A DNA stretch of 39,024 nt from NCBI GenBank assembly GCA_964500395.1, contig CAZCOO010000005.1, positions 1 to 39,024 of the forward strand, in the 5' to 3' direction. The stretch comes from an uncultured Verrucomicrobiota bacterium. GTDB taxonomy: Bacteria; Verrucomicrobiota; Kiritimatiellia; CAZCOO01. The translations under genes were made by a program, and so were the position numbers. Each line of letters begins with the position of its first letter. The first letter of the stretch is position 1. The notes beneath the pieces are model-generated. The model had not been told where the DNA came from and ran no database searches. It saw only the letters and a list, made by a program, of their open reading frames with translations. Below are positions 6,351 through 24,547 of the stretch, in pieces.

Positions 6351-8069
6351 TCAGCCCTCCGCGGGGCGCAGGGCCGCGAGGCGAAGCTGCAGCGAGCGAC
6401 GGCCGCGGAACTCATTCATCTCCGGGTAAACCGCTACATCTAATGGGGACGGGGGTATTTCGACGTCTTTCATGCCGAATCCAATGGCCGACCACTGCTG
6501 TCCGCCGTAGCCGAGCTGCAGCTTGAGGTGCCGATTGCCGACGATCCGGGGCTGCCCGATCACCCGCACCCCGCGGACGGCCCACAATGGTTGCGGGTTT
6601 TCCTGTCCGAAGGGGCGCAGCACATCGAGGTGGGCGACGAGGGCCTCGTCGATCTCGCCGGGCTCCAGCCACCCGTCGAGTTCGAGCTGTGGAATGAGGT
6701 CCTCCTCCCGAAGCTGCTGCCGCACGCACTCGTCAAACCGTTCACGGAAATCGTCCACCCGCCCGGCTTCGATGGAGAGCCCGGCGGCCTGCTGGTGCCC
6801 GCCGTGGGCTGCGAGCAGATCGTCGCAATCCCGGAGGGACTCTGCGAGGTCGAAGCCCGGGATGCTCCGCCCGGATCCCCGTCCCGACTCCCCATCGAGA
6901 GCGATGACAATGCAGGGGCGGTAAAACCGGCGCACCAGCCGGGACGCCACGATCCCGACCACCCCCGGATGCCAGGTATCGGATGCGACGACAATCCCGT
7001 GGAGATCGCCCTGCGTCTGCCGGTCGAGCACCATGGCCTCCGCCTCGCGCAGAATCGACGCTTCGATCGCCTGCCGGTCGCGATTGGCCGCATCGAGTTC
7101 CCGGGCGAGCTCCTCCGGAGTGCGATCGCCGTCGCCGGTCAGGAGGTGCAGGGCATCCATGGCCGTTTCCAGCCGGCCGGCCGCATTGAGCCGCGGGCCG
7201 AGAAAGAAGCCCACATGCTTTTCATCGAGGGGCGGTTTCACGCCGGCCGCCCGGGCCAGCGCCTCGATGCCGGGCGCGGGTCGCCGGTTGAGCCGCTCGA
7301 GCCCGGCCCGGGCCAGGATCCGGTTTTCCCCTGTGAGCGGGACCATGTCGGCGATGGTGCCCAGGGCGACGAGGTCCAGAGAGTCCCGCAGGTCGAACCC
7401 GGGCGGGGGCTCGCCCCCCCGGTCCCGCAGGTCCTTCACCAGGGCGTAGGCGAGTTTAAAGGCGACGCCGACACCCGCGAGATTGCGGAATTCGGCGTCG
7501 TCGCCGAGCTTGGGATTGACCACGGCGGCGGCCGGGGCGACCTCCTCGGCCGGTTCATGGTGATCGGTGATGACCACGTCCACCCCCTGGGCCGCGGCCC
7601 GGCGGACCGAGGCCACGCTGTTGGTGCCGCAATCGACGGTGACGATCAAGTGGGGGGCGTGATCGGCGAGGCAGCGGTCGAGGGCATCGGCCCCCAGGCC
7701 GTAGCCCTCGTCGAGCCGGTTGGGGATAAAGGGCGTGACGTCCCCGCCCAGGGCCTGCAACACCCGGCTCAACAGAGCGGTGGCGGTCACCCCGTCGACA
7801 TCGTAGTCGCCGAACACCACCACGCGCCGGCCGTCGTCGAGGGCCGCACGGATCCGCGCCACCGCCGGGGCCATATCCGGAAGGAGAAACGGATCGCGAA
7901 TTCCGCTCAACCGGGGGGCGAGGAAGCGGTCGAGGGTTTCGGGCCGGTCCACCTCCCGCAGCACCAGGGCCCGGGCGACCGCCCGCGGCACCCCGCAGGC
8001 CGCCGCGAGCTCGGTCACCCGCCCCTCGTCACAGGGGCGGATGATCCATCTGGGAGCGGGCCCGGCCAC
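6351..8069 (-). CDS. recJ: Single-stranded-DNA-specific exonuclease RecJ
   Basis: DHH-family motifs VVVFGDYDVDGVTATALL, VTVDCGT, VITDHH and the DHHA1 motif GGHQQAAG. GTG start at 8069. Confidence 0.9.
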   Translation of the reverse strand: MAGPAPRWIIRPCDEGRVTELAAACGVPRAVARALVLREVDRPETLDRFLAPRLSGIRDPFLLPDMAPAVARIRAALDDGRRVVVFGDYDVDGVTATALLSRVLQALGGDVTPFIPNRLDEGYGLGADALDRCLADHAPHLIVTVDCGTNSVASVRRAAAQGVDVVITDHHEPAEEVAPAAAVVNPKLGDDAEFRNLAGVGVAFKLAYALVKDLRDRGGEPPPGFDLRDSLDLVALGTIADMVPLTGENRILARAGLERLNRRPAPGIEALARAAGVKPPLDEKHVGFFLGPRLNAAGRLETAMDALHLLTGDGDRTPEELARELDAANRDRQAIEASILREAEAMVLDRQTQGDLHGIVVASDTWHPGVVGIVASRLVRRFYRPCIVIALDGESGRGSGRSIPGFDLAESLRDCDDLLAAHGGHQQAAGLSIEAGRVDDFRERFDECVRQQLREEDLIPQLELDGWLEPGEIDEALVAHLDVLRPFGQENPQPLWAVRGVRVIGQPRIVGNRHLKLQLGYGGQQWSAIGFGMKDVEIPPSPLDVAVYPEMNEFRGRRSLQLRLAALRPAEG

Positions 8070-8081
8070 CGAATCGCCGGA

Positions 8082-10607
8082 TCAGCTCTTTTTGGGCTTG
8101 CCGGTCTTTTCCGCCGCGGGGGCCGGATCTTTGTGCCAGAGCAGCATGACCGGGGTGGCCACAAAGATCGAGGAATAGGTCCCCACCAGGATGCCGATAA
8201 AGAGGGCAATGGCAAACTCGTGAATGGCGCCGCCTCCCAGGATGAGCAGCATCACCACACTGAGCAGCGTGGTGATCGAGGTCAGCAGGGTCCGGCTCAA
8301 GGTCTGGTTGATGCTGAGATTGGCGATCTCGGAATACGGTTTGCCCTTGATCAGACTCAGGTCCTCTCGAATGCGGTCGAAGACCACAATGGTGTCGTTG
8401 ACCGAATACCCCACGATCGTCAGCAGGGCGGCGACGATGGGGAGGCTCAACTGGTTGCCGAGCAGGCAGTAGACCCCGACGGTAATGAGGACATCGTGCA
8501 CGAGGGCCGCGATGGCCCCGATGGCAAAGGCGAACTCAAACCGGAATGAGATATAGATCACGATTCCGATGAGAGCCGTGACAATGGCCCAGACCCCTTT
8601 CTTGCGCAGTTCCTCGCCCACCTGGGGGCCGACACTGTCTTCCTTGATCAGGGTGTAGCCCGCCGTATCGTAGGTCTGCTCGATGGTGTCGCGGGCCGTA
8701 GCGCCCTCGTCGAACCCGACCTTGATCTCGAGAAACTCGTCGATCCCCTCGTCATCCCCGGCGCCGAGTTCCTGGTGATACTGGATGAAGGCGCCTTCCA
8801 CGCCCGCCTTCTCCAGGGTTTCGCGAACGTCATCCACCGACTGGCGGTCGTCGTAGCGGAAGGCCAGGGAGGTTCCCCCCGTGAAATCCACGCCAAAATT
8901 ATCCGCCCCGCGATACATAAACACGCCCCAGGTCGCTACGATCAGGATTGCGCTGAGGGCCAGGGCGACGAACCGCTTGTCGGTGAAGCGGATTTTCGTG
9001 TCCTGCACGATGCGGAGCATGCGGAGCTTTTCCACCCGGCCGCCCCGTGCCAGCCAGTCGAAGAACATGCGGGTCACGACCAGCGCGGTGTACATGCTCA
9101 CGATGATGCCTGCACTGAGGGTGACGGCAAACCCGCGGATGGGGCCCGACCCCTGCCAGAAGAGAATGACGGCAGTGATGAGGGTGGTGATATTGGCGTC
9201 GAAAATCGTGCTGAATACCTTGTCGTACCCGGCGGTCACGGCGTGGGCAAAGGTTTTGCCCGCCCGCTGTTCCTCGCGGATCCGCTCGAAGATCAGGACG
9301 TTTGCATCCACGGCCATGCCGATGGTGAGCACGATACCGGCGATCCCGGGCAGGGTCAGGGTGGGCAACTGGGCGCCGCCCCCGCCGGGCGCCCCCGTGA
9401 AGAGCCCGAGAAAACCGGAGGCAATCACCATCCCCAGGGGCAGCAGGAGCATATCCAGCACCAGGGCCGCATTGGCGACAATCCCGGCGAGCCGGTAGTA
9501 GAGCAGCACAAACAGCACCACCGCGATGGCCCCGTACAACAGCGCGCGCATGCCGCTGTCGATGGAATCTTTGCCCAGGGTGGGATCGACGGACCGGGTC
9601 TCCACGATATTGACGGGCGCGGGCAGAGACCCCGCCTGCAGCACGTTGGCCAGGCGCATGGCCTCGGGCACGCTGAACTGCCCGGTGATCTCGGCGCGGC
9701 CGCCGAGGATTTCCTCGTTGATGCGCGGCGCGGAATAGAGGGTATCGTCCAGGACGATCGCCAACAGGCGCCCCACATCGCTGTTGGGATTCTTGGGCCC
9801 GCGGGGGGCATAATCCCGCGTGATGCGGGCAAAGCGCTTGGTCCCTTCGCCGTCGAGTTCGAGGGTCACCCGCGGGGCCCGGGTGACCTGGTGGTAGGCC
9901 ACGTCGGCGTCGACCACCGCCTCGCCCGTAAGCTGCCGGCGCACCTCTACGTAATAGGGCCGGTACACGGTGTTCCCGTCGCGGGTCTCGTTTTCCTCCA
10001 GCATGAATTCGCAGCCGGGCTTGTACTGCCACTTGCGCAGGCGCTCGTAGTAGTCCTGATCCATCTCCGCATCGGGCACGGACTCAAAATCGCGGGCGTA
10101 GACGTCGCCGGTCTGGCTGATCTGGAACCCGGGCGGAGCCAGCCCCTCCTCAAACAGCTCCTGCGTCCATTCCGAGCTGCGCTCGTGGACCAGGCGAAAT
10201 TCCAGGAAGGCCACGCTCATGATGGCCTGGCGCGCGGCGCGGCGCTTCTCTTCGTCGACCCCCGGGAGCTGAACCACGATCCGCTCGCGGCCCTCGTGGG
10301 TGGTGGCGTAGATGATCGGTTCCTCAATGCCGAGCCCGTCCACACGATTGCGGATGACCTCTACGGCATTATCCTGGGCCTTGTCGGCCGCCTCGTTGAC
10401 GCGTTCCCGCAGGGTCTCCCCGGTGATGTCGGGGGTCTCCTCCCGGATCTGTTCCCGGATGCGTTCGCGATCGATTTCGACGGTAAAACTGGTCCCGCCC
10501 TTGAGGTCCAGCCCCAGCTTCACTTTTTCCTGGGGCGGCCACACGATGGAGAGGGACCAGGCGGTCAGACCGACGAGAATGAGCCATTTGACAGTGGTTT
10601 TGTTCAT
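8082..10607 (-). CDS. secDF: Fused protein-export membrane protein SecD/SecF
   Basis: 841 aa: MNKTTVKWLILVGL..LGLDLKGGTSF, then a second GVDFTGGTS module. Two 6-TM RND-like blocks. Confidence 0.92.
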   Translation of the reverse strand: MNKTTVKWLILVGLTAWSLSIVWPPQEKVKLGLDLKGGTSFTVEIDRERIREQIREETPDITGETLRERVNEAADKAQDNAVEVIRNRVDGLGIEEPIIYATTHEGRERIVVQLPGVDEEKRRAARQAIMSVAFLEFRLVHERSSEWTQELFEEGLAPPGFQISQTGDVYARDFESVPDAEMDQDYYERLRKWQYKPGCEFMLEENETRDGNTVYRPYYVEVRRQLTGEAVVDADVAYHQVTRAPRVTLELDGEGTKRFARITRDYAPRGPKNPNSDVGRLLAIVLDDTLYSAPRINEEILGGRAEITGQFSVPEAMRLANVLQAGSLPAPVNIVETRSVDPTLGKDSIDSGMRALLYGAIAVVLFVLLYYRLAGIVANAALVLDMLLLPLGMVIASGFLGLFTGAPGGGGAQLPTLTLPGIAGIVLTIGMAVDANVLIFERIREEQRAGKTFAHAVTAGYDKVFSTIFDANITTLITAVILFWQGSGPIRGFAVTLSAGIIVSMYTALVVTRMFFDWLARGGRVEKLRMLRIVQDTKIRFTDKRFVALALSAILIVATWGVFMYRGADNFGVDFTGGTSLAFRYDDRQSVDDVRETLEKAGVEGAFIQYHQELGAGDDEGIDEFLEIKVGFDEGATARDTIEQTYDTAGYTLIKEDSVGPQVGEELRKKGVWAIVTALIGIVIYISFRFEFAFAIGAIAALVHDVLITVGVYCLLGNQLSLPIVAALLTIVGYSVNDTIVVFDRIREDLSLIKGKPYSEIANLSINQTLSRTLLTSITTLLSVVMLLILGGGAIHEFAIALFIGILVGTYSSIFVATPVMLLWHKDPAPAAEKTGKPKKS

Positions 10608-10650
10608 AGGAATACGTCTCCAGACATACAGGGGTCGATGGGGCGGGCAC

Positions 10651-10998
10651 TCAGGACTGGACGTCCTCGTCCGAGGGGGCCTCCCCCTTGTCCAGCACCT
10701 GGGTCACGGCGCCGCGCGCCACCTCGATCTTGACCTTATCGGCAATCTTGATGGTGAGGATTTTGTCTTTCACATTGGTCACCGTGCCGAGAATGCCGCC
10801 GCCGAACATCACCCGATCCCCGGTCTTGACGGCCTCGAGAAGGGCCTTGCGCTCTTTCTCTTTCCGCTGTTGGGGTCGGATCAGGATGAAATAAAAAATG
10901 GCGATCATGATGGCGAGCCACCCGAACATGAACATCGGGGACTGCTGCTGGGCTCCCTCCCCGCTCGGGGCCGCCATGGCTAACCAGATTCCGTACAT
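10651..10998 (-). CDS. yajC: Preprotein translocase subunit YajC
   Basis: ..IMIAIFYFILIRPQQRKEKERKALLEAVKTGDRVMFGGGILGTVTNV is a typical YajC core. It holds the conserved position between tgt and secDF. Confidence 0.88.
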   Translation of the reverse strand: MYGIWLAMAAPSGEGAQQQSPMFMFGWLAIMIAIFYFILIRPQQRKEKERKALLEAVKTGDRVMFGGGILGTVTNVKDKILTIKIADKVKIEVARGAVTQVLDKGEAPSDEDVQS

Positions 10999-12331: not shown

Positions 12332-13276
12332 TCACTCCGCCCCCGGTCGCTTCAACATGCGCTGCAGGCGGGCCGCGGTGAGGTTGAACCGCCTGGCAAA
12401 ATGCCGGGACTCGGCATCCCCGGATTCTTCCAGCTCCACCGGGAAATCGCCGGCGCCGAGACGCGTCAGGGCTTCGGCCCACGCGGCCCGGCGGCGGTCG
12501 TCCGCCCTCTTCCGCCACACAAGAAGACCCGTCATACCGGCTCCCAGGAGAATCAGAAGCCCCCCGATTCCCCCCTGCACGGTGCCGAAGGCCCGGTTTC
12601 GAATCCCGACTGCCCGCTCCTCTCCCTGCTCGACGATTCTGTGCAGCCGGGCCTCGAGCCGGTGGGCGAGCGCCTCCTTCAACGCCCGCTCATTGACCGA
12701 CACACACACCATCCGCTCCGCCCCCTCTACCCGGCGGGCGACGGAAAAGACTTCCATGCCGGGGAACTGCCGGGTATCCGGCGTCCGATGGGTCCAGGCA
12801 ACGGATCCGGAAGGGGGACGCGGATGGAGGGTATCCCGCCAGGCCGGCATCGCTTTATGCCACCGGTACAGCGACCGCTCCGCGCGGGGAATCACTCGTT
12901 CCGCCAGAATGTCAGGGCCGTCCCACACCGCGATATGATGAGGGACACGGGGCCCGTCGCCGGGCTCCGGCGACAGGAGGGACCGGCTCAGCGAGTCCAG
13001 AATCCGGCGCATCTCCTCCGCACCGGACGCGCCCTGCAAACGGAGGGACAGCAGCTCGGCGAGCCCCCGGGCCCGGGACCGCACCAACGCCTCCATCCGA
13101 TCGGCGAGGGCATCCCGATCCCAGCGGGACAGTTCGCGGAGGCGTTGCCTTGTCATCTCCTGGTGCGCGGCATGCAGTTCGCCCGCAGCCTGGAGAGCGA
13201 CAAGCAGGGACCCCGCGCCCATCAGGCCCAGCAGAACCAGGCCCGCTATAGCCGTACGCTTTGGGAATCCGCCCAT
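12332..13276 (-). CDS. Membrane sensor-like protein: TM, periplasmic domain of about 200 aa, TM, HAMP, with no output domain
   Basis: TM1 is TAIAGLVLLGLMGAGSLLVAL and TM2 is GGIGGLLILLGAGMTGLLVW. A HAMP-like segment follows (RKRADDRRRAAWAEALTRLGAGDFPVELEESGDAESRHFARRFNLTAARL), and the protein ends about 10 aa later. Confidence 0.6.
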   Translation of the reverse strand: MGGFPKRTAIAGLVLLGLMGAGSLLVALQAAGELHAAHQEMTRQRLRELSRWDRDALADRMEALVRSRARGLAELLSLRLQGASGAEEMRRILDSLSRSLLSPEPGDGPRVPHHIAVWDGPDILAERVIPRAERSLYRWHKAMPAWRDTLHPRPPSGSVAWTHRTPDTRQFPGMEVFSVARRVEGAERMVCVSVNERALKEALAHRLEARLHRIVEQGEERAVGIRNRAFGTVQGGIGGLLILLGAGMTGLLVWRKRADDRRRAAWAEALTRLGAGDFPVELEESGDAESRHFARRFNLTAARLQRMLKRPGAE

Positions 13277-13435: not shown

Positions 13436-16400
13436 TCAGAACCGGACCTGGAGCGCTACCCGCCAGGTATCCCGTTCGTAATCGGGTGTCTCGAAGTGGC
13501 TCACCGACCCCAGCAGAGAGAGCCGGCGGGTGAGCCGCAGGTCCGCATTGAGGCGGGCGCCCCATACGAATTTCCAGTCCCCATCCCCTTCGCGCGCATA
13601 CCCGGCCTCGCCGCTGGTGGTATAGTGCAGCAGCCGGTACGTGCCCCGCAGCGCGGCATAGAGCTGGTGTTTCTGGAGTTCCTCGGGCGCGTAGTACTCG
13701 TCCGGGTCCCGGTCGCTGTCCGCAAACCGGAACCGGTACCCTGCCCCGAGGTACGGCCACTCCTGCAGGCGGCGGACAATGCGGCCGTTCACCATGTACG
13801 TATCGTTTTCATCGGTGCGCAGAATCGCGAATCCATTCGCGTAGACATCCCACAGGTCCAGCGCGCGGGAATAGGTGTACAGGCCGAATTGATCGAACAG
13901 GATCTCGTCCCGGACCGCCTCGATGGTCTCGACCTGGTCGCGCCACCATTCCAGCTCGACATACCCGCTGAACGGGCGATTCGGCAGATGCACGTTGGCG
14001 CGGCCGCCGAGGTGGTCGTCGATCTCCGGGTTGTCAAAATCCATCCACCACAACTCGCCCCGCAACCACTGCTGCGGAAAATAAAACCAGAGGAGGTCGC
14101 CGCCGGTGCGGATGCCCTCTTCCACGCCCAGCCCGTCCCGCGTCCAGCGATTGTAGTCTCCGAACAGGCCGAGGCGGAGATGATCGCTGACAAACCCGTG
14201 CGCACGGGCTCCGTCCCGCTCGAAGGTCCTCTCGTCGGAGTCCTCCCAGCCGCGCGCGTCGACTTCGAGCTGGAGGCGTTTCTTGTTCTCGGCCCGATCG
14301 AGCGCGTCCTGGATCTTTTCATCATCCGGGGCCAGGTCCCGGGCGTTCCGCAGATGCTCGAGCGCACTGGGCAGGTCGCCCTGCTGGTATGCATTGGCCC
14401 CCCAGTTGAACTCGACCTGGAGGGGATCGGCGCCCAGGTCCCGGACCTCCCGGAACCACCGGTTGGCCCGGACGTGCTGACGGTGCCAGTACAAAACCTT
14501 GGCCAATTCCAGCTTGGCCCGGATCAGGGGATTGCCCTCGCTGATGTGGGCTACCACATTGGTTGCCCCCCAATACGGGGCGACCGATTTTGCGGGCAGG
14601 CGGAGGGGGTCCCGCTCCGGCCCCATGAATCCGCTGTCGTCGAGAAAGAGGGCATAATCAAAGAACTCCTCCGCGGCCTCGTGCAGGACTTCCAGCGAGT
14701 CCGGCTCTGTATCCAGCGAAAAGTGGCCGTAGTCGCCCGATGGATAGAACAGAATCTTCGGCCCCTCGCCGGGGAGCTGCTCCGCGGCGGCGGCGAGGGC
14801 GTTCCGAACCCGGTCGCGCATCTCGTCGAGGGTTTCCCGCCGGCCCTCTTCATAGAGGCGGTGTGTCAGCGGGTTGCCGCGGACGCCCTCCGCGTTGACG
14901 GGGCGGCGCTCATCGTCGGGCGGGCCGCTGCCGGCGATCTGCCAGCGCGGGGACTGGAGGATCTCCCGGTAGGCCAGGCCGCCCTCGCCGGTTCCGAACT
15001 GGAAGCGAAGATAGGACGGCTCCCCGGCAAGAACCGCGCGGATATCGTGCTCCTTGAGCAACGTGTCCAGGTCGGGAATGGCGCTGCTCTCCGGCTCCAC
15101 CAGCACCAGCACAACCCGTTTTTCCCGGGCATCGGGATCGACGTCCTCCCCGATGTGCAGGAACGAAAACCCGTTGCTGGTAATGGCCTGAACATGGTCC
15201 GCCACCTGCTTCACCGAGTTAAACCCCGGATAGTCGCATGCGGTGACATTGCGGTAGGCGAGCACGGGAACCGCCTGCGAGGGGTGCGGCTCGGACACAT
15301 CCGCCAGCTCGCGGATGGCGGGCCGGAATTGCTCGTCCTCCGCGAGGGAAATCGCATGCCGGCGGATGGTCTCGATATCCCACGGCCGCTGATCGACCAG
15401 TGCGTCCGCATAGTCGAGGGCCTCCTGGAAGGCTTCCCGCCGCGAGGCGAGTTCGCGGAGGCGAAGCAGGGCGGGGAAGAATTCCGGATTGCGGGCCAGC
15501 AGGTCCTCGTAGGTGTGCTGGGCATTGGTCCACTGCTCCATGCCGAGATAGGCCCGCCCGACGGCCCGGGCCATGGGGACATAGCCCGGATCCTGTTCCA
15601 GATAGGCGCGGGAATCCGCGAGCGTGGTCTCCCAATCCTCCAGGTACTCAGCCAGCTCGGAGCGCAGCCGGTACAGAAGAATGGATGGATGGGTCTGGAT
15701 GCCCAGGGTGGCCCAGTCGAAGGCGGCCTCCCGGTTGGCCAGGGCCGATTCGAGCTCGGCCAGGGAGTAGTATACTTTCTCGTTCGGATTCAGATCGGCC
15801 AGTTCTTCGAGAATGGTACGGGCTTCGCCCGGCTGACAGAGTTTCTTGAGCGTCTCGGCGGTCTCGAGCCCGTAGTAGGTCACCTCGGGCGAGGTGTAGT
15901 GCGCCATGTACCAGATATTCAGGGCCTCGGAGAGGTTCCCGAGCCGGCTCAGCATGTGGGCCAGCTCGGAACGGAATTCTTCCCGGCCCAGCTCGACCTG
16001 GCGTTCGAACCAGGCGGCCTCCCGGGCGGCGGCTTCAAAGCGGTCGGCGTCGATCAGCAGATCGAATAACTGGGCGCGGAGAAAGGGCTGCTCAGGATCC
16101 GCGGCGAGGCTGGCGGCAAACCGTTCGATCGCGGTATCGTCATCCTCATCCCACAGGGCGCGCTTTCCCTGCAGCCGCAGCTCGGCGGCCTGGGGCAGGT
16201 CCTTTTCCAGCGCGCGCTCGAGCACGGTCCGCGCTTCATCGGGCCGGTTGAGCCGTTCGGCCAGTTCGATGGTTTTCACCCACAATGAACGGGACGGATC
16301 GCGCTCGAGAACGCGCCGGTAGAGGGTGTAGGCGCGGGCAAACCGCCGGCCCTCGAACAGGTAGTCGGCGAAGCCCTGCAGGATATCCGTCACGCGGGAA

Positions 16401-18169
16401 ACGTAGTCGGGGCGCTCCTGCAGGATTTCATCCACCCGGTCCACCAGGGGAAGCAGGCTGGGCTCTTCGTCACAGAGGTAGGCGATCTCGAGGAAGACAT
16501 CAATCTCCAGCAGGGGCGCCTCGGCCAGCCGCTCCTGCACCCAGCGCTCCACGTAGCGGGTGCTCTGGCCGCAGTGGGCATTGAGGGCGCGCGCATAGGC
16601 CAGGTAGAGCCCGGCCCGGGCCGGGTCGTCGTCCCGCTCCCAGGCCCGCTGGAGAAACGGCATGGCCGCCACCAGCCGGTTTTTTTCCACCAGGAGGGAG
16701 CCGAACTCATACCAGGACAATGCGGGGGCCCACGTGCGGAAGAGTTCGAGGGCCCGGTCGGTCTCGTGGTTTTCCACGAGCAGGGCGAGGACCTGGGCCA
16801 TGGTATCGTGCCGGGCGGCAAGCTCCTGGTCGCGCAGGGCTGTGTCCCAGGCTTCGATGGCGGCCTCCGGCCGTTCCTTGACCCAGTACGACCACCCGAG
16901 ATCCCGCCAGGCCGCCGTCCGGGACGGATCGAGTTCCACCTGGCGGCGCAGGAGTTCAATTCGCTTGTCGACTTCTTTTACGCGCCCGGCGCGATTGGCC
17001 AGGGCCCGGATCAGGTGGCGGCGGACGCGTTCGTCGTCGGGATGGTCCGCATGCAGTGCCTCCAGAATGTCGATGGCCTCCCGATCGTTCTCTTTTTCCC
17101 CGGCGTGCAGGGCGCGGGCCAGCCCCTGGATATAGGCGACATCATCGGTATCGACCGCCTGAAGAAACGCATCGGCGGCGGCGCGCCCCTCCGTATCGAG
17201 GAGCAGCCGGGTCTTCAGGATGAGGCCCCGGCGATGGTCCGGGGCGCTCTCCAAAACTCGGTCGAGGGTGGCCAGGGCCTTGCCGGTCTCGCCGCCGTCC
17301 AGATACGCCTCGGAGGCCCAGAACCACCAGGAGGCCGGCGGGGCATCCGCGGCCTCGGCGGTCTCTACCCAGGTGCGAGCCGCGCGCAGGGGTTCGCGAT
17401 TGTGCCGGTAGGCCCAGCCCAGGTTGACGCGGGCCTGCAACCAGTCCGGCCGCAGGGTGACGGCGCGTTCGTAGGCCTCGACGGCAGGCCGGGGCGCCCG
17501 GGCCTGCAGGTGGCGGTCGCCGAGTACGCTCCAGGCCAGGGCGGTGAGGTTGCTTTGAACCGCATTTGTCGGGGCCAGACCGGCGACCGTCGCCTTTCCG
17601 GGGGCGGGCGCCACGGCCAGTTCGCACACGGCGTGGGCCGCCTGCTGAAGACCCTCCCGGGGGGCCGTCTGGGCCCATCGCGAGGCGAGGAGGGTCACCA
17701 TGTTGGTATCCCCGCCGGCCCAGGCCGTCTGCAGCATGCGCTGAACCGAGGACGGGGAGATCAATTCGATCTCCTCATCGGGCAGCGCCATCCACTGGGT
17801 GCGGATGCGGTGCCGCTTCCCCGTCTCCATCCACATCAAGAATTGCCATTCCCGAATCTCTATGGGCTCGGACACGCCCAGATCCAGCGCCGTATCGAAG
17901 GCCTCCTCCGCCTCTTCGTATTCTTCCCGCAGCATTTGCACCCGGCCGAGCTGGGCCCAGGCGGCCGGGTACGCCGGATCCAGGGACACCGCCCGCCGGG
18001 CCAGATCCAGCGCCTCGCCGTACTGTTGCGCGCCCAGCCGCTCCCGGCTTTCGTGCAGGACCTCGCGCACAGAGACGACGTCATCAGCGGCCCGCCCGGA
18101 GGCGCCGAACAGCCCGCCCAGCATGCAAACACCTGCCAGAACCATCCATATTCTCGAACGCCTCATCAC
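13436..18169 (-). CDS. Giant secreted TPR scaffold with an embedded CE4-like insert and a C-terminal outer-membrane beta-barrel (PgaA/PelB/BcsC-like exporter)
   Basis: 1,577 aa. The signal peptide is MMRRSRIWMVLAGVCMLGGLFGASGRAADD. TPR-type helices span about aa 40-960 and 1210-1295. A non-TPR insert at aa 965-1200 (nt 14570..15277) resembles a polysaccharide-deacetylase fold (VPVLAYRNV.., KRVVLVLVEPESSAIPDLDTLLKEHDIRAVLA, ILFYPSGDYG). The last 275 aa or so are alternating beta-strands ending in ..RVALQVRF. The GTG at 18169 or ATG at 18166 overlaps the upstream stop. Confidence 0.75.
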   Translation of the reverse strand: MMRRSRIWMVLAGVCMLGGLFGASGRAADDVVSVREVLHESRERLGAQQYGEALDLARRAVSLDPAYPAAWAQLGRVQMLREEYEEAEEAFDTALDLGVSEPIEIREWQFLMWMETGKRHRIRTQWMALPDEEIELISPSSVQRMLQTAWAGGDTNMVTLLASRWAQTAPREGLQQAAHAVCELAVAPAPGKATVAGLAPTNAVQSNLTALAWSVLGDRHLQARAPRPAVEAYERAVTLRPDWLQARVNLGWAYRHNREPLRAARTWVETAEAADAPPASWWFWASEAYLDGGETGKALATLDRVLESAPDHRRGLILKTRLLLDTEGRAAADAFLQAVDTDDVAYIQGLARALHAGEKENDREAIDILEALHADHPDDERVRRHLIRALANRAGRVKEVDKRIELLRRQVELDPSRTAAWRDLGWSYWVKERPEAAIEAWDTALRDQELAARHDTMAQVLALLVENHETDRALELFRTWAPALSWYEFGSLLVEKNRLVAAMPFLQRAWERDDDPARAGLYLAYARALNAHCGQSTRYVERWVQERLAEAPLLEIDVFLEIAYLCDEEPSLLPLVDRVDEILQERPDYVSRVTDILQGFADYLFEGRRFARAYTLYRRVLERDPSRSLWVKTIELAERLNRPDEARTVLERALEKDLPQAAELRLQGKRALWDEDDDTAIERFAASLAADPEQPFLRAQLFDLLIDADRFEAAAREAAWFERQVELGREEFRSELAHMLSRLGNLSEALNIWYMAHYTSPEVTYYGLETAETLKKLCQPGEARTILEELADLNPNEKVYYSLAELESALANREAAFDWATLGIQTHPSILLYRLRSELAEYLEDWETTLADSRAYLEQDPGYVPMARAVGRAYLGMEQWTNAQHTYEDLLARNPEFFPALLRLRELASRREAFQEALDYADALVDQRPWDIETIRRHAISLAEDEQFRPAIRELADVSEPHPSQAVPVLAYRNVTACDYPGFNSVKQVADHVQAITSNGFSFLHIGEDVDPDAREKRVVLVLVEPESSAIPDLDTLLKEHDIRAVLAGEPSYLRFQFGTGEGGLAYREILQSPRWQIAGSGPPDDERRPVNAEGVRGNPLTHRLYEEGRRETLDEMRDRVRNALAAAAEQLPGEGPKILFYPSGDYGHFSLDTEPDSLEVLHEAAEEFFDYALFLDDSGFMGPERDPLRLPAKSVAPYWGATNVVAHISEGNPLIRAKLELAKVLYWHRQHVRANRWFREVRDLGADPLQVEFNWGANAYQQGDLPSALEHLRNARDLAPDDEKIQDALDRAENKKRLQLEVDARGWEDSDERTFERDGARAHGFVSDHLRLGLFGDYNRWTRDGLGVEEGIRTGGDLLWFYFPQQWLRGELWWMDFDNPEIDDHLGGRANVHLPNRPFSGYVELEWWRDQVETIEAVRDEILFDQFGLYTYSRALDLWDVYANGFAILRTDENDTYMVNGRIVRRLQEWPYLGAGYRFRFADSDRDPDEYYAPEELQKHQLYAALRGTYRLLHYTTSGEAGYAREGDGDWKFVWGARLNADLRLTRRLSLLGSVSHFETPDYERDTWRVALQVRF

Positions 18170-20130
18170 TCTGCCTCTCTCTTTGCCGACCGGAGGGCCT
18201 CCGACCGCATCGCCCCCGCCACGCCGTACGGCCGATCCGCGAGGCGGAGGCCCTCGGCGACGAGATGATGGGCGGGGATGTGATACATGAGGGCCTCGAG
18301 GGCCTCTCTCTGCTGCGGCCCCTCCGTGATCAACAGAATCCCCGGCGCGGGATCGGGGGGACTCTCGGCAATGGAGAGGGCCGTTTCGGGCGAGATGATG
18401 CTCACGATCTGGACGGCTTCAGCCCGGCAGGCCTCGATCAGCTTCGGGTGGTACCCCGATACGGCGATGGAATCGATGAGCGCCCCCATCAGCGGGTCAT
18501 CGCGCACGGCCCGGAGTTCGCTCATCACCGCCTCCACCTGCTGGAGGTCGAGTTCGCCGGCCGGGTTGATCCTCGGGATGGCGGCGATTCCCTCGGCCGC
18601 CGCGGCCAGCACCGCATCCCGGCGGGACCGGGACAGGTCAAACTCGGGACGTTCTTCCATCCCGAACCAGGGGGGCACCCAGTAGGTCACCCGCCGGCGG
18701 ACATCGTCGGGCAGTTCCAGCAGCGCGGGGCCGACCAGGTACAGCGGGGGCAGCGCCTCCGCCTCAAAATCGTACAGGGTCACGGCGCCCTCGTCTTCGT
18801 GAATAAACTGAATCTTGCCGTGGTCGACGGTTCTGGAGACCGGGGCCGGATCGATCACGGCGGTGCCGTCACAGCTCACCCACAGCCGATTGCGCTTGAT
18901 CCGCACCTCGACGGTGTGGCGGTTGGTGGGGCCCTCCGTATAGGGATGCCAGGCAACCGTGTGCATCTGGTTGTAGAGGCGCTCCTGGATGCGCATCCCT
19001 TCGGCTGAGGAGGTCAGCCGGATGTACGCATGGGGCCCGGCGAAACGGAGATACAGGCAGGCGAGACCGTCCCCGCGGAGCTGCCAGGAAAACCGGATCC
19101 GGGCATCCATCCAGTCGCTGCTGCCGCGAAGCAGCACCCGGCCGTCCGGAGCGATCCGCACGCCTCCCTCGCGCTCCGCCACAGGGCCTTCGGCAAACCA
19201 GCGCTCCCCCGTGGAGATGTAGTCGACGGAGGTGAGGTTCGGGGAAAACCGTTCAATCTCCGCCAGGAGGTCCTCCCCCGTCCAATCCCCCCGGGCGCGC
19301 AGGCGGGTCAGGTGATAGGGATTGTCACGCAGGCCATTAAAGGGATCCCCGCTGCCGGTTATCGCGAGCTGATGGTAATCCCGCACGACCTGGCGATTGA
19401 GCTGGGCCGCCATGGGATCGGCGAGCCGGCCCGTCCCGGGATCGGCAAAGGGGTACAGATAGAGGAGGGGCGGGGCGCCGCCCGTCGTCAGCAGCTCGGC
19501 GGCCGTCCGGTAATCTTCCGTGACCCGGCGGGCAAATTCTTCTTCGGTCTCCCGGCGGCCCTTGTGCCATTTGCGATTGCTGAGGAAATGCCCCTCCAGC
19601 CTCGACTCATCGATGGCAATGGTTTTGTTTGCATCGTGTCCCATGCTGGCCAGGGTCCAGTGGTCCATGCCGGCGATCTTCCCGATGTCGCCCTCTTTCA
19701 CCTGGTGGTGCCCCCACTCGTCCGTGACAAACGTGGGAACGGCCATCACGGCGCTGTAGCCGAAGTGTTGCAGGATCGGCGTCGACCGGATGAGGCTGTC
19801 CTTCCGTCCGCCCTCAAAGATCAGCAGGACCGCCTTCTCCGGCAAGGGCGTGCCTTCGCGGTAAAACCGCAGGACATCTCCGGGCGTGATGGTCTTGAAT
19901 CCCGCCCCATGCAATGCGCCGAGCTGTTCATTCAGGCGGCCCGGGCTCACGTAGCGCGGATCCTCATCCCGGGTAATCCCCTCGTAGGACACGGCGTAGA
20001 ACCCCTTCCAGGAGTGCCACGCCTCCGGCTCCCGCTCCGGCTCGGGCTTGGGGCGGAGGAGATACCAGGCATAGCCCACGACGATCAGCGTGACCACGAA
20101 CCACTGGAAGAGGACAAACACTTTTTTCAT
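18166..20130 (-). CDS. Membrane-anchored polysaccharide-deacetylase-like (CE4) protein with degenerate catalytic motif, plus a jelly-roll (LamG/DUF1080-like) domain and a C-terminal domain of unknown function
   Basis: The N-terminal TM is MKKVFVLFQWFVVTLIVVGYAWYLL. The CE4-like core is KAVLLIFEGGRKDSLIRSTPILQHFGYSAVMAV..LASMGHD..LYLYPFADPG. FEGG (nt 19807..19818) stands where NodB motif 1 has FDDG. The middle domain is RIRFSWQLRGDG..LYLRF..VEVRIKRNRLWVSCDGTAVID..GKIQFIHEDEGAVTLYDFE. The ATG at 20130 forms an ATGA overlap with the synthase gene's stop. Confidence 0.65.
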   Translation of the reverse strand: MKKVFVLFQWFVVTLIVVGYAWYLLRPKPEPEREPEAWHSWKGFYAVSYEGITRDEDPRYVSPGRLNEQLGALHGAGFKTITPGDVLRFYREGTPLPEKAVLLIFEGGRKDSLIRSTPILQHFGYSAVMAVPTFVTDEWGHHQVKEGDIGKIAGMDHWTLASMGHDANKTIAIDESRLEGHFLSNRKWHKGRRETEEEFARRVTEDYRTAAELLTTGGAPPLLYLYPFADPGTGRLADPMAAQLNRQVVRDYHQLAITGSGDPFNGLRDNPYHLTRLRARGDWTGEDLLAEIERFSPNLTSVDYISTGERWFAEGPVAEREGGVRIAPDGRVLLRGSSDWMDARIRFSWQLRGDGLACLYLRFAGPHAYIRLTSSAEGMRIQERLYNQMHTVAWHPYTEGPTNRHTVEVRIKRNRLWVSCDGTAVIDPAPVSRTVDHGKIQFIHEDEGAVTLYDFEAEALPPLYLVGPALLELPDDVRRRVTYWVPPWFGMEERPEFDLSRSRRDAVLAAAAEGIAAIPRINPAGELDLQQVEAVMSELRAVRDDPLMGALIDSIAVSGYHPKLIEACRAEAVQIVSIISPETALSIAESPPDPAPGILLITEGPQQREALEALMYHIPAHHLVAEGLRLADRPYGVAGAMRSEALRSAKREAE

Positions 20131-21791
20131 GCCGCAGCTTCCTTCTTCTCCCGGGTCCCCCACTCCGGCGTCCAGAAGGTGATGACGGCCCAGGGCAACT
20201 GCCAGACCAGCACGAGAAGATAAAAATAGCAGAAAAACACCCCGTAGCCCCAGAGCGCGGACCGGCGGGCAAAGAGGTAACTCGTACTCATCAGCGAACT
20301 CATGAGCAGAATCCCGAACAGGTAGATCAGGGGCGTGCCGTGATGGAAAAACGGCACATAGATCAAGGCCCGGAAGACGATGGCCGGACTCAGCACGGGC
20401 AGAATCAAGCCCAGGTAGAAGGACAGGGACATCAGCGGCTGACGCCGCCAGAAAAAGCCGCAGGCCCGAATGGATTCCCGGAACCAGGACCGCTTCCAGC
20501 GCATCTGCTGGCGCAAAAAGGTCCGGTAGTCTTCCGGCACGATCGTGGTACAGCGGGAGCGTGAATCGTACTTCAGCTTGTGCCCGGCCTTGAGGAGAAA
20601 ATTCGTAATCGAGCGATCGTCGCCGAAGGTGGCCGGGGACCCGAGGAACGTCTGCTTCACCCAGGGCTCGAGGAACGGCTCCAGGGTACTGCGGCGGTAC
20701 GCGGAGAGCGGGCCGGAAAGACAGGTAATGGAGTCAAAGATGCTCTCCGCGCCCTTCATAATGCGAAACCCGATGTAGTACCGCACCGCCTGCATCTTGG
20801 TGAGCATATTGTCCCAGGCGTTTTCCACATCGCAATGGCCGGTAACCGCCGCGACCTCTTCGTCCTGAAACCCGTCCACGAGATTGCGGATGGCATTGGT
20901 TTCCAGAAAACTGTCCGAATCGATAAAGATGACGATCTCGCCGGTCGTGATGCGGGTGCCCGCCACCAGGCCGTCCCGTTTGCCCTGCGATTCTTCGAAG
21001 TTGATAATGGTCAATTCCGGGTATTTCTCCCGCGCCCGGTTCATCGCCGCGAGGGTGGCATCCGTACTCCCGTCATTGATGGCCACAACCTCCATCTTGT
21101 CTGCCGGGTACCGGCTTTCCATCACCTGCATGATGGTTCGCTCGATGTGCTCTTCCTCGTTCTTGGTGGGGATGATGACCGAAACCGTCGGCAGGTCCTC
21201 CCGGGGTTTCGGCGGGCGGTAGAACCCGGCGAAGAGAAACCGGCTCACCAGGTACCCGCCCACGGTGAGGCTGTAGAGGAAAATGGGGACGTCGAACCAG
21301 AAGTAGTACAGGTTGCCGTACTTAATGAGCAGGATGAGACTGATGGTCAGAAAGCAGCCGATCACCGCGCCCCAGCGCAGATACGTCCAGGTGGTGCGGG
21401 CGAGCCGCCGGCTGAGCGACTCGCTGAACTGCACCCCCGCGATTCCCGCGGCCTCGTCGTGCCGGCGAATCTCGGCATCGAGTTCGTACTGCCGGTTCTG
21501 AAACTCCTCCGGCATGGCCGCTTCGGGTACCTTGAAGCGAAGCTTGACCCGCTTCTCGCCGCCCGGCAACTCCACATTCTCGAGGCGCAGCCCGCCATCG
21601 GAGATGTCGGACGCGGTCCCCGTGAAGACCTGTTCGGTCTCCCCCTGCCCCACGATGATTTCCACGGGAAAGTCGACCCGGTAGCGGGAGTATTGCCGCC
21701 GATCGCTGGGATCGGGCCTCGCCAGGGCGCGCAGTCGCCGATCCTGAATCTTATGAGGGACCTTTCCCCCGGTATTGTCTTCGCCGTTCAT
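20127..21791 (-). CDS. N-terminal PilZ domain fused to a processive family-2 glycosyltransferase of the hyaluronan/chitin (HasA/NodC) synthase type
   Basis: PilZ motifs are RRQYSR (nt 21684..21701) and DISDGG (nt 21591..21608). GT2 motifs are VSVIIPTKNEE, INDGSTD, FIDSDS, CLSGPLSAYRR, GDDRSITNF and QQMRWKRSWFRES (QQMRW at nt 20496..20510). TM helices flank the GT domain. The GDDR..TN and QQxRWxxSxFRES strings closely resemble streptococcal HasA as I recall it. Confidence 0.8.
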   Translation of the reverse strand: MNGEDNTGGKVPHKIQDRRLRALARPDPSDRRQYSRYRVDFPVEIIVGQGETEQVFTGTASDISDGGLRLENVELPGGEKRVKLRFKVPEAAMPEEFQNRQYELDAEIRRHDEAAGIAGVQFSESLSRRLARTTWTYLRWGAVIGCFLTISLILLIKYGNLYYFWFDVPIFLYSLTVGGYLVSRFLFAGFYRPPKPREDLPTVSVIIPTKNEEEHIERTIMQVMESRYPADKMEVVAINDGSTDATLAAMNRAREKYPELTIINFEESQGKRDGLVAGTRITTGEIVIFIDSDSFLETNAIRNLVDGFQDEEVAAVTGHCDVENAWDNMLTKMQAVRYYIGFRIMKGAESIFDSITCLSGPLSAYRRSTLEPFLEPWVKQTFLGSPATFGDDRSITNFLLKAGHKLKYDSRSRCTTIVPEDYRTFLRQQMRWKRSWFRESIRACGFFWRRQPLMSLSFYLGLILPVLSPAIVFRALIYVPFFHHGTPLIYLFGILLMSSLMSTSYLFARRSALWGYGVFFCYFYLLVLVWQLPWAVITFWTPEWGTREKKEAAA

Positions 21792-21946: not shown

Positions 21947-24547
21947 ATGGCCGAGTATCCTGAAACAAGCGCAAATGTTGCGGGCCGTCCTTCACGGTCG
22001 ACGGATCCCCTTCCCTCCCCCCAACGGATTCTCGTCCTCGATGACGACCGGCACATCCGCCGCATCATGCGGCGGCGGTTGCGGGAATCCGGATGCGATG
22101 TGACCACTGTAGCCAACGGACGTGAAGGATTGCAAGCCCTCCTTCGCGATGACTACGATGTTGCCGTCGTCGACCTCCGCATGCAGGAAATGGACGGCAT
22201 GGCCTTTGTCCAGGAGGCCCTGAAGATCTGGCCGTGGCTTCAGATTATCATCTGCAGCGGGTACCTCGATGAGGACGTCATCCGCCAGGCGGAGGCCCTG
22301 GGCGTATCGCATGTGCTGTCCAAGCCGGTGGAGTACGATTCATTCGCGGCCCTGGTACGACGCCTGGCAGAGACATCGAAATCCGAGGGCGCTCGGGGCC
22401 GCCATCCCCCGGAACGGCTGCAGCAGCAGCTTCGGCTTCTCCGGCAGATTACCGAATCCGGTCTTCATGAACGAAACCTGCCCGCCGCCCTCAACCGGTT
22501 GGGAGACGGGCTGACCCAGCTACTCCCCGCCGATCTGCTGGGCATCCTGGTCACGGAAAACTCGGACTGCACGCTGTTCCTTCGGCCCCACCGCATCCCG
22601 GAGCCGCACCATATTTCCGATATCAAATCTCACATGTCGAATCGGTACCAGGCGCTCAGCGGCGAGCCCCTGCCCCTTCATTACATGCAACTGGACATCA
22701 AGCCGGCACGGGTCGAGGAGGAGTCCGATATTGAGCAGTTCGGAACCATTGTGTCGGTCCCCATCATCTCCGACGACCAGGTCCACGGGCTGATCACCCT
22801 GTGCTCGGGCGAGGCCGACGCCTACTCGCCTTCCGATATTGCCTTTCTCTACCAGACGTCCAACCAGCTCTCGACCATCCTCGTCGCCCTCGGGGAAATC
22901 CGGAGCATGGCCATTCGGGACAGCCTCACGGGCCTCTACAACCGGCGCCATCTGGACGAACAGCTCGAGCGCATGTGGCTGCTCTCCCGGCGCTATCACC
23001 ACCCCATGGCCGTGCTGGCGGTGGATCTCGACCATTTCAAGGACATCAATGACTCGCTCGGCCATGCCGTAGGCGATGAGGTGATCAAGGAATTTGCCGA
23101 CCTGCTCAAGACCGAAACCCGGGCCTCCGACATCCTCGCCCGGCACGGAGGCGATGAGTTTTTGATCGTCCTCTCGCAGGCCAATGTAGAGGAAGCGGAA
23201 GGGCTGGCCACGCGGATGCTGGAGAAGGTCCGCGAGCATCCGTTCCTGTCGCAGGACCACTCCCTGGCGCTCACCGCCTCGATCGGCGTCGCCCTGTACC
23301 GGCCGGAGCGGGGCGCGCTGTCGCATGAAGACCTGGTGCATCAGGCCGACCAGGCGCTCTACCTCGCCAAACAGGAAGGGCGCAACCGGATGGCCGTGTA
23401 CCGCACCGAGCACGATGCCCCGGTGGAAGAGGAGCCCGTCGAGTCGCCGGAAACGGACCCGCCCCCGGAACGATCCCGCTCGAGCGTGAAGGCCCGCGTT
23501 CTGGTCGTGGACGACGAGGCCAGCGTCATCCGCATTCTTCATCGCATGTTGGTGCGCGAGGGGTACGACATCCTGTCGGCTCAGTCTGTGGAGGAGGCCA
23601 TTCCCCTGCTGCAGGAGCACCGGGGCCATATCGATATATTGCTCACGGATCTCGCCCTCCCCACGAGCGACGGGTTCGAAATGCTTCGCCAGGCGCAGGA
23701 GCGGGATCCCCGCATGGTCCGGATCGTGATCAGCGGCTACGTCACCGCCGACAATGCCATTTCCGCGCTGCGCCACGGCGCCTACGACTTCGTGCAGAAG
23801 CCCTTCGTGCGCGAACAGCTCCTGGCCCAGCTCGACCGCGCCCTGGAGTATCGAACCCTGCTGCGGGAAAACGACCTCTACCGCAATCACCTGGAGGACA
23901 TGATCCGGGCCAAGAGCGCCGAGGTCACCACGGCCCTGAACCAGATCAAAACCTCCTATGAATTTACCCTGGAAACGATGGTGGCCATGCTGGATGCGCG
24001 GGAGTACGAGACCAGCCGGCACAGTCTGCGGGTGCGGGAACTCACGGAAGTGCTGGCACGCCACATGGGCATCGAGCCCCCCGAACTCGACGATATCGCC
24101 CGCGGCGCCCTGTTGCACGACATCGGGAAAATCGGGATCCCGGATGCCATCCTTCAGAAGCCCGGCCAACTGACCCCGGAAGAGTGGGACACCATGAAGC
24201 GCCATCCGGAAATCGGCTACCGGTTTCTGAAATCGAGCCCCTTCCTCAAGGACTCGGCCGAGATTGTGCTCTCCCACCATGAGAAGTACAGCGGGGGCGG
24301 CTATCCCCGGGGGCTCAAGGGGACGGACATCTGCCTCGGGGCCCGCATCTTTTCCGTGATCGATGCCTACGATGCGATCCGCTCCCCGCGGGTGTACAAA
24401 CCGTCGCTGCCGCGGGAACAGGCCGAACAGGAAATCCGCTCTCAATCCGGCAAGCAGTTCGACCCCGATGTCGTGGACGCATTCCTCTCCATCATTCCGG
24501 AGATCGAGCGGCGCGGGCAGTGGAGCGACTCCGGCCTGCAGACCTGA
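21947..24547 (+). CDS. Hybrid response regulator REC-GAF-GGDEF-REC-HD-GYP (c-di-GMP synthase plus phosphodiesterase)
   Basis: REC1 is RILVLDDD..DVAVVDLRMQEMDG..SKP. A GAF-like segment spans about aa 170-320. The GGDEF domain has an I-site (RASD, then 5 aa, then GGDEF at nt 23147..23161). REC2 is RVLVVDDE..DILLTDLALPTSDG..QKPF. The HD-GYP domain has LLHDIGKIGIPD and HHEKYSGGGYPRGL. Confidence 0.88.
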   Translation: MAEYPETSANVAGRPSRSTDPLPSPQRILVLDDDRHIRRIMRRRLRESGCDVTTVANGREGLQALLRDDYDVAVVDLRMQEMDGMAFVQEALKIWPWLQIIICSGYLDEDVIRQAEALGVSHVLSKPVEYDSFAALVRRLAETSKSEGARGRHPPERLQQQLRLLRQITESGLHERNLPAALNRLGDGLTQLLPADLLGILVTENSDCTLFLRPHRIPEPHHISDIKSHMSNRYQALSGEPLPLHYMQLDIKPARVEEESDIEQFGTIVSVPIISDDQVHGLITLCSGEADAYSPSDIAFLYQTSNQLSTILVALGEIRSMAIRDSLTGLYNRRHLDEQLERMWLLSRRYHHPMAVLAVDLDHFKDINDSLGHAVGDEVIKEFADLLKTETRASDILARHGGDEFLIVLSQANVEEAEGLATRMLEKVREHPFLSQDHSLALTASIGVALYRPERGALSHEDLVHQADQALYLAKQEGRNRMAVYRTEHDAPVEEEPVESPETDPPPERSRSSVKARVLVVDDEASVIRILHRMLVREGYDILSAQSVEEAIPLLQEHRGHIDILLTDLALPTSDGFEMLRQAQERDPRMVRIVISGYVTADNAISALRHGAYDFVQKPFVREQLLAQLDRALEYRTLLRENDLYRNHLEDMIRAKSAEVTTALNQIKTSYEFTLETMVAMLDAREYETSRHSLRVRELTEVLARHMGIEPPELDDIARGALLHDIGKIGIPDAILQKPGQLTPEEWDTMKRHPEIGYRFLKSSPFLKDSAEIVLSHHEKYSGGGYPRGLKGTDICLGARIFSVIDAYDAIRSPRVYKPSLPREQAEQEIRSQSGKQFDPDVVDAFLSIIPEIERRGQWSDSGLQT

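Follow-up and report, generated by a model that had tools for sequence, protein, structure and literature searches.

A 39,024-nucleotide stretch of DNA from an uncultured Verrucomicrobiota bacterium (contig CAZCOO010000005.1 of assembly GCA_964500395.1; hereafter the window) encodes a large outer-membrane porin in which the array of tetratricopeptide repeats (TPRs) is interrupted by a PgaB-type carbohydrate esterase family 4 (CE4) domain. The domain has a NodB fold, is located three TPRs ahead of a 16-stranded β-barrel and has lost the canonical catalytic and metal-binding residues. The gene is the last of a cassette that also encodes a PilZ-containing family 2 glycosyltransferase (GT2) and a second PgaB-like protein, referred to as the partner. 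The porin is probably the outer-membrane exporter of a synthase-dependent exopolysaccharide system gated by cyclic di-GMP (c-di-GMP), in which the embedded domain would be a pseudo-deacetylase that clamps or guides the glycan and possibly also serves as a dock for the partner below the pore.

The porin is encoded by a minus-strand open reading frame of 1,577 open codons; the public gene call P0002 begins at the second codon, the ATG at position 18166, and comprises 1,576 amino acids. The N-terminus reads, by eye, like a signal peptide. The gene and its parts are as follows:

13436..18169, minus strand: whole TPR-CE4-TPR-porin gene (list of open reading frames; gene call P0002)
18089..18169, minus strand: putative signal peptide, about residues 1-27, MRRSRIWMVLAGVCMLGGLFGASGRA/ADD (sequence read by eye)
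15290..18082, minus strand: long periplasmic TPR region, about residues 30-960, roughly 930 residues (Pfam and NCBIfam TPR families)
14570..15277, minus strand: inserted PgaB-type CE4 (NodB-fold) domain, residues 965-1200, 236 residues (structure model, Foldseek, profile search and hhalign)
14282..14569, minus strand: three outer-membrane-proximal TPRs, residues 1201-1296, between the insert and the barrel (model helices; NCBIfam)
13439..14281, minus strand: 16-stranded β-barrel porin, residues 1297-1577, with a C-terminal Phe (DSSP; Foldseek)

A preliminary description, made from the sequence alone, had proposed a TPR-porin with a deacetylase-like module at residues 965-1200 (14570..15277), and its landmarks were recovered: VPVLAYRNV at residues 967-975, KRVVLVLVEPESS beginning at residue 1017, LVLVEPES at residues 1021-1028 (15086..15109), ILFYPSGDYG at residues 1139-1148 and the C-terminus ...VALQVRF. 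The statement that the protein is about twice as long as PgaA is correct, as E. coli PgaA has 807 residues, and the approximately 920 residues of TPRs claimed ahead of the insert are supported by hidden Markov model matches, the structure model covering residues 860-1577. In Pfam and NCBIfam, only TPR families matched the porin, with the best stretches within residues 45-953 and at residues 1222-1290. A phmmer search of the whole protein against the Protein Data Bank (PDB) returned nothing beyond TPR proteins, and Pfam PF01522 did not match the insert as a single sequence. It took a family profile or a model of the structure to reveal the CE4 domain.

Such a model was calculated with AlphaFold2 for residues 860-1577 from an alignment of 41 sequences, and it reached a mean predicted local distance difference test score (pLDDT) of 92.2 and a predicted template modelling score of 0.90. 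DSSP analysis of the model revealed TPR helices up to residue 959 (residues 864-959 being modelled as TPRs), followed by a domain of alternating strands and helices from residue 967 to 1195, which adopts a distorted (β/α)7 NodB fold. TPRs resume thereafter, as had been proposed: six helices form three repeats at residues 1202-1295. Residues 1300-1576 contain 16 β-strands with pLDDT values of 94-98. In Foldseek searches against the PDB, the insert matched the N-terminal deacetylase domain of PgaB (4u10; E-value (E) 1.4e-10, template modelling (TM) score 0.72-0.73) and PplD (6dq3; TM score 0.71-0.72), which supports the CE4/NodB fold and speaks against additional helical repeats or an unrelated fold. 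The TPR-barrel part matched BcsC (9b8a, E 3e-11; 6tzk, E 4e-9), PelB (9h80_M, E 4.7e-9) and the PgaA barrel (4y25, TM score 0.73). The anticipated C-terminal outer-membrane barrel is therefore borne out, and the combination of a TPR array and a C-terminal 16-stranded barrel is that of the PgaA/BcsC/PelB class. The kinship of the modelled porin to PgaA, BcsC and PelB is structural only; as a sequence homologue of PgaA it was rejected, the hhalign comparison with the E. coli protein being not significant.

The relationship of the insert to PgaB can also be seen at the sequence level. A profile built from 23 insert sequences identified the deacetylase domain of Aggregatibacter actinomycetemcomitans PgaB in the PDB (4u10, E 4.1e-11), together with further polysaccharide deacetylases or deacetylase-like proteins (6go1, E 1.2e-4; 4v33 and 4hd5 more weakly, E about 0.02), and hhalign matched the insert to E. 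coli PgaB with E 2.5e-5. An even stronger hhalign match was obtained between residues 968-1205 of the porin and residues 45-288 of the family of the 654-residue partner (probability 99.75%, E 2.5e-27), and the genome of the window contains exactly two copies of the domain, one in each of these proteins. Three independent alignments (HMMER to 4u10, hhalign to PgaB of strain MG1655, and hmmalign) gave the same mapping of the PgaB active site, for which we take H55 to be the catalytic acid, D114 the catalytic base, and D115, H184 and H189 the metal ligands. The corresponding residues in the window and in the 41 family members counted per column are:

PgaB H55: R973 in the window; R, D, Q, S, G or N in the family
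PgaB D114: V1024 in the window; V, I, E, A or L in the family
PgaB D115: E1025 in the window; D in 26, N in 5, E in 4 and Q in 4 of the 41 members
PgaB H184: S1081 in the window; S, G, T, A or R in the family
PgaB H189: D1086 in the window; a gap or variable in the family

The TFDD motif, which provides the base and the metal-binding aspartate, is absent from the insert. The preliminary description had placed LVEPE opposite TFDDG; the loss of the site was recognized correctly, but the register is shifted by one residue, as T-F-D-D-G aligns with V-L-V-E-P, so that the base aspartate is replaced by Val and the metal-binding aspartate by Glu. None of the 41 family members has a histidine at the columns of H184 or H189, which form the metal-binding pair of motif 2. 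The catalytic acid of the S-W-H motif is missing as well; the window reads VLAY-R973, where active relatives have Y-H. The suggestion that the insert is probably non-catalytic is thus supported by the family-wide absence of the metal-binding histidine pair, the base aspartate and the acid histidine, and the domain is best described as a pseudo-deacetylase that has lost the canonical machinery throughout the family and is presumably inactive.

The architecture is not restricted to the window but is old and widespread. A search with residues 940-1577 identified 48 other proteins with 38-47% identity over 100% of the query. The C-terminal module of around 635 residues, consisting of the insert, three TPRs and the barrel, is constant in length in the BLAST alignments and is always found at the C-terminus, and the linker of three TPRs measures 96-97 residues throughout the family. 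The N-terminal TPR arm of the homologues ranges from 413 to 1,053 residues. With one genome scanned for each species, 39 loci were obtained, all in uncultured genomes, whose hosts are Verrucomicrobiota, Kiritimatiellia, Lentisphaerae, Thermodesulfovibrionales, Aminicenantes and Syntrophorhabdus. The Tgt protein encoded in the window shares 65-67% identity with proteins of Verrucomicrobia and Kiritimatiellia, to which its host probably belongs. An assembly chimera or a fused gene call is ruled out by the end-to-end conservation in the 48 other proteins and the 39 species genomes. In a tree of the CE4 domains, which was calculated with FastTree only and leaves the deep branching order unresolved, the partner domains and the degenerate porin inserts fall into separate clades, with support values of 100 and 99, respectively, and the idea that the insert is a recent duplicate of the partner domain was rejected on this basis. 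A second clade of degenerate inserts, in proteins of around 1,580-1,625 residues with the motifs LVIGRSxP and LALTDYxPP, is sister to that of the window (support 99). Its members are P0121, P0130, P0132, P0151, P0165, P0166 and P0218, and their barrels closely resemble that of the window (E 1e-56 to 1e-90).

The loss of the canonical catalytic residues and the long branch leading to the degenerate clade in the domain tree could be taken to mean that the insert is a once-active deacetylase in decay, which has no function and is merely tolerated by the scaffold. The conservation of the domain makes this disfavoured explanation extremely improbable. The mean pairwise identity of the insert (0.40) lies between those of the upstream TPRs (0.36) and the barrel (0.45); over several phyla, the insert is therefore no less conserved than the flanking repeats. 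Its length is steady at 216-240 residues, 30 of its 236 positions are at least 95% conserved, and all 49 family members have retained it. These values argue that the insert is under purifying selection and is not decaying. Invariant or nearly invariant are Y972, G1098-N-P-L-T-H1103, E1112, R1120, P1143-x-G-D-Y-G-Q-x-S-L-D1153 and D1177-D-x-G-F. The conserved motifs directly follow β-strands and are located on the face that carries the active site and the substrate groove in canonical CE4 enzymes. YPGRN, GNPLTH and SLDT are specific to the branch of the window, in which the domain has thus gained invariant motifs. The conservation of the groove face together with these new motifs suggests that a ligand-handling role has been kept, most likely that of a glycan clamp or guide and perhaps of a docking site for the partner.

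The genetic context is consistent with a role in polysaccharide export. In the window, the porin gene is preceded by two genes on the same strand, and a putative regulatory gene is divergently oriented:

20127..21791, minus strand: GT2 synthase of 554 residues with an N-terminal PilZ domain, a c-di-GMP receptor (Pfam PilZ at residues 30-133, GT2/Chitin_synth_2)
18166..20130, minus strand: partner of 654 residues, anchored in the inner membrane (NCBIfam PgaB, E 1e-14; structure model)
21947..24547, plus strand (divergent): GAF-GGDEF-receiver-HD-GYP protein (Pfam)

The stop codon of the synthase gene overlaps the ATG of the partner gene (ATGA, positions 20127-20133), and the TGA of the partner gene shares an A with the ATG of the porin gene (GTGATG, positions 18164-18169). 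These overlapping stop and start codons suggest that the three genes are tightly coupled in translation. A GAGG-type ribosome-binding site is present upstream of the porin start. The order synthase-partner-porin is kept at the loci L001, L003 and L004 (39-45% identity) and also at L045. The porin gene thus shares an operon with that of a processive, membrane-bound GT2 synthase. The best PDB matches of this synthase are hyaluronan synthases (E 5e-37); in NCBIfam, it matches NodC (2e-50) and PgaC (2e-39), both far below the cut-offs, and it shares 28% identity with E. coli PgaC. As the synthase is closer to hyaluronan synthases and NodC than to PgaC and no pgaD gene is found in the cassette, the cassette is, judged by its gene content, not a pga operon. 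The divergent regulator is likely the c-di-GMP input of the cassette. At L003, a PAS-GGDEF-HD gene directly follows the porin gene; c-di-GMP enzymes are hence linked to the cassette at two loci examined.

The partner model (pLDDT 91.1) comprises an N-terminal transmembrane helix, a CE4 domain resembling the N-terminal domain of PgaB, a lectin-like β-sandwich and an α/β domain. In Foldseek, it matched the PgaB structures 3vus and 4u10 (TM score 0.80), the β-sandwich being CBM66/VIP36-like, and the family profile of the partner matched E. coli PgaB (3vus) with E 1.8e-20. The contrast drawn in the preliminary description, according to which the deacetylase is a separate protein in Pga and Pel and is fused into the scaffold here, needs to be amended: the fused copy is real, but a separate PgaB-like protein is also encoded in the operon, and it is degenerate too. 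The CE4 domain of the partner, a paralogue of the porin insert, is non-canonical, with FEGGRKD in place of TFDDG and without the equivalent of H55. E106, R109, K110 and D111 of this domain are nearly invariant and the histidines of SMGH and GHFL are conserved; the partner domain could have an unusual site of its own.

In the proposed mechanism, c-di-GMP would bind to the PilZ domain of the synthase, whose GT2 domain, similar to hyaluronan synthase, NodC and chitin synthase, would produce the polymer and push it across the inner membrane. The chain, which probably contains N-acetylglucosamine (GlcNAc), would be taken over in the periplasm by the partner with its degenerate CE4 and lectin-like domains, and the long TPR superhelix would lead it through the periplasm. 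Three TPRs before the 16-stranded barrel, it would meet the CE4 domain embedded in the scaffold. There, just below the pore, the domain most likely binds the glycan and clamps or guides it, and it may also offer the partner a place to dock. It is also conceivable that the insert does not bind glycan at all and is mainly a protein-protein dock for the CE4-like or another domain of the partner, thereby forming a trans-envelope complex. The two CE4 domains are paralogues and always co-occur in one operon that appears to be translationally coupled, and the contact between the deacetylase domain of PgaB and the TPRs of PgaA in E. coli is a protein-protein contact at the same position (PMC9384988). 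However, the conserved residues of the insert are found on the substrate-groove loops, as would rather be expected for ligand binding, and a docking role would be compatible with glycan binding. We therefore regard docking as the sole function as quite improbable.

The origin of the pseudo-deacetylase becomes clearer when more distant relatives are considered. With E <= 1e-3 as the limit, an exhaustive search with the insert profile returned 1,171 cluster representatives, 46 of which had E <= 1e-30. The best 150 include many more long proteins (around 820-1,680 residues) with the domain located around 370-400 residues from the C-terminus. Most of these long proteins align end to end with the TPR-barrel profile (E 1e-11 to 1e-43), several others only partially. 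At least 32 of these cluster representatives, every one of which matches the TPR-barrel module, carry all canonical CE4 motifs (VLLYH, ITFDD, QSHxxxxH and FPxGDYGQ), and P0128, P0133, P0148, P0179, P0191, P0197, P0203, P0213 and P0220 are examples of such proteins that align end to end with E 1e-21 to 1e-43. The intact-motif relatives are matched by PF01522 and are merely annotated as tetratricopeptide repeat proteins. Two of their loci were read:

L045 (P0148): chitin-synthase-like GT2 without PilZ, 688-residue partner, 1,231-residue porin with PF01522, GH18
Locus of P0133: the same order, with GH18, a gene of the UDP-glucose/GDP-mannose dehydrogenase family and a GlmS-like gene (GATase and SIS domains) nearby

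In both loci, the synthase lacks PilZ and a GH18 gene is adjacent, which at L045 overlaps the porin stop codon. The L045 synthase is 46.5% identical and orthologous to that of the window. The partner gene of L045 (4932-6998 of that locus) encodes a degenerate CE4 domain (LLAIVAGYRQ), while the embedded domain of the porin (7001-10696) has YH, TFDD and HxxxxH and looks like a working deacetylase. Judged from these motifs, the intact embedded domain probably acts as a de-N-acetylase on the polymer where it is exported. Since the canonical motifs are ancestral for CE4 and the intact versions have a homologous barrel with the domain inserted at the same point, the most parsimonious scenario is that an active deacetylase was inserted once and that catalysis was later lost in the lineage of the window, whose branch would thus be a pseudoenzyme derivative of the intact-motif relatives. 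In five Lentisphaerota proteins of around 1,670-1,680 residues (P0117, P0119, P0122, P0123 and P0124), the insert profile matches two stretches each, and some porins may carry two embedded CE4 domains. In P0119 and P0124, the best stretch is at about residues 435-665 instead of the usual 1045-1305.

Another argument comes from the genes downstream of the porin. In sister loci, a convergent canonical CE4 gene is found just 3' of the porin gene; it encodes a protein of around 320-356 residues with FDDG and THTYHH motifs. Of the 30 species loci with at least 1.2 kb of downstream sequence, 16 have this accessory CE4 and four have GH18. Accessory CE4 genes were recorded at L001, L004-L006, L009, L010, L012-L015, L019, L023-L025, L033, L035-L037 and L043. 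A stand-alone deacetylase next to the porin fits the idea that the embedded copy no longer performs the chemistry.

Several observations weigh against a pseudo-deacetylase in a polysaccharide exporter of the proposed kind. The cassette of the window contains neither GH18 nor an accessory CE4, and comparing the TPR-barrel profile with E. coli PgaA in hhalign gave a probability of 0.3%, revealing no similarity at the sequence level. The synthase scores alike against hyaluronan synthase, NodC and PgaC and stays below every curated cut-off. Furthermore, the loss of the canonical residues does not prove the loss of all catalysis: the column of the metal-binding aspartate D115 is still acidic (D or E) in 30 of the 41 family members, and the (nearly) invariant residues H1103, D1146, D1153 and D1177 could build a different site. 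The embedded domain might accordingly still be an enzyme with a rebuilt site, in which H1103 together with D1146, D1153 or D1177 deacetylates or otherwise modifies the polymer at the entry of the pore. Besides the acidic column, this explanation could draw on the (near) invariance of GNPLTH, GDYGQxSLDT and DDxGF in the degenerate branch, all on the former active-site face, and on the genome of the window, which is 89% complete and in which no orthologue of the accessory CE4 was found; the single PF01522 gene above the family cut-off in this genome, on contig 86, is not related to the accessory CE4 found in sister loci. However, the other four canonical catalytic and metal positions are variable rather than merely substituted, and roughly half of the sister loci have a separate canonical CE4 beside the porin, for which an active insert would leave no need. 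We know of no CE4 with this residue set that is active. Taken together, a rebuilt enzyme seems unlikely to us, and a glycan-handling pseudo-deacetylase remains the preferred interpretation.

One of the closest known systems is the PgaA-PgaB pair. In E. coli, the deacetylase domain of PgaB binds, and is stimulated at, the outer-membrane-proximal TPRs of PgaA (PMC9384988). The window system shares with it the periplasmic TPR arm with a 16-stranded barrel, a CE4 domain of the PgaB N-terminal type at the outer-membrane-proximal TPRs, and the dependence on a GT2 synthase under apparent control by c-di-GMP. In E. coli, however, the contact is non-covalent (PMC9384988), whereas the CE4 domain of the window is a covalent part of the porin and is devoid of the catalytic and metal-binding residues. 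The porin of the window is also twice as long as PgaA and is not similar to it in sequence, its synthase resembles hyaluronan synthase and NodC, has a fused PilZ domain and is not accompanied by PgaD, and its partner has lectin-like and α/β domains instead of GH153. Neither a PgaC/PgaD pair nor a PgaB with a C-terminal GH153 domain, as in pgaABCD, is thus present.

PelB-PelA and BcsC likewise combine TPRs and a 16-stranded porin with a modifying enzyme associated with the TPRs. In these systems, however, the enzyme is separate or fused end-on, whereas it is located here inside the TPR array, three repeats away from the barrel. Moreover, the enzymes differ, with GH8 for cellulose and a CE4-like domain plus GH166 for Pel, and so do the polymers. 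The nearest precedent for a periplasmic enzyme joined to the porin is the end-on BcsZC fusion of Zymomonas (PMC7112194). The NfrA-NfrB system of E. coli is similar in being a compact GT2 system gated by c-di-GMP with a TPR-type outer-membrane protein (PMC8669472). It differs in the c-di-GMP receptor domain and is not reported to have an embedded CE4.

The intact CE4-in-porin relatives (P0148 at L045, P0133 and P0128) have the same domain order, mostly the same distance of around 370-400 residues from the insert to the C-terminus, and the same three-gene order. They differ in the retention of YH, TFDD and HxxxxH, in the match to PF01522, in the absence of PilZ from the synthase at two loci and in the adjacent GH18. 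NodB-fold proteins with altered catalytic residues are also known from Bacillus anthracis, in which BA0330 and BA0331 are pseudo-enzymes; the structure 4v33 from this pair is among the matches of the insert profile. They are free-standing lipoproteins of a Gram-positive bacterium that act on the cell wall, in contrast to the domain of an export porin described here. No publication on a TPR-porin with an inserted CE4 domain, intact or degenerate, was found in the literature searched. The parts, namely the TPR-porin, the CE4 fold and the PilZ-gated GT2, are all known; what is new to us is a CE4 domain within the TPR array of a porin, in active- and inactive-looking forms.

That a modifying enzyme must sit on the outer-membrane-proximal TPRs of an export porin has been deduced in the field from pull-down experiments. 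A PgaB-type domain that is fused at this spot, in active- and inactive-looking versions on a homologous scaffold, provides a natural pair for testing whether export requires modification at the mouth of the pore, and for testing what a non-catalytic CE4 fold does at that place. The GH18 genes of the relatives and the affinity of the GT2 to hyaluronan synthase, NodC and chitin synthase suggest, by inference only, that the polymer is β-linked, contains GlcNAc and is possibly chitin-like. The hyaluronan synthase/chitin synthase/NodC-type synthase and the GH18 genes in the operons of relatives also raise the possibility that bacteria use the system to export a chitin- or chitosan-like polymer through the outer membrane, a route of which no account was found in the same literature. 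As the hosts are uncultured, it may represent a common but unstudied matrix polymer of the environment. More speculatively, and with considerable doubt on our side, the cassettes might define an undescribed export class of diderm bacteria for a chitin- or hyaluronan-like polymer with a CE4 domain in the porin, which in the branch of the window would have been re-tooled by the new invariant motifs YPGRN, GNPLTH and SLDT into a novel type of glycan gate or lectin, or into a non-canonical enzyme, the whole pathway being under direct c-di-GMP control through the PilZ fusion.

Downstream of the porin, at a distance of 159 nucleotides, one further open reading frame is found:

12332..13276, minus strand: open reading frame of 314 residues (sub-threshold NCBIfam match only)

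It has no Pfam match and no counterpart at this position in L001, L003 or L004. The remainder of the window consists of housekeeping genes. At positions 8082-10607, SecD and SecF are fused into one protein of 841 residues.

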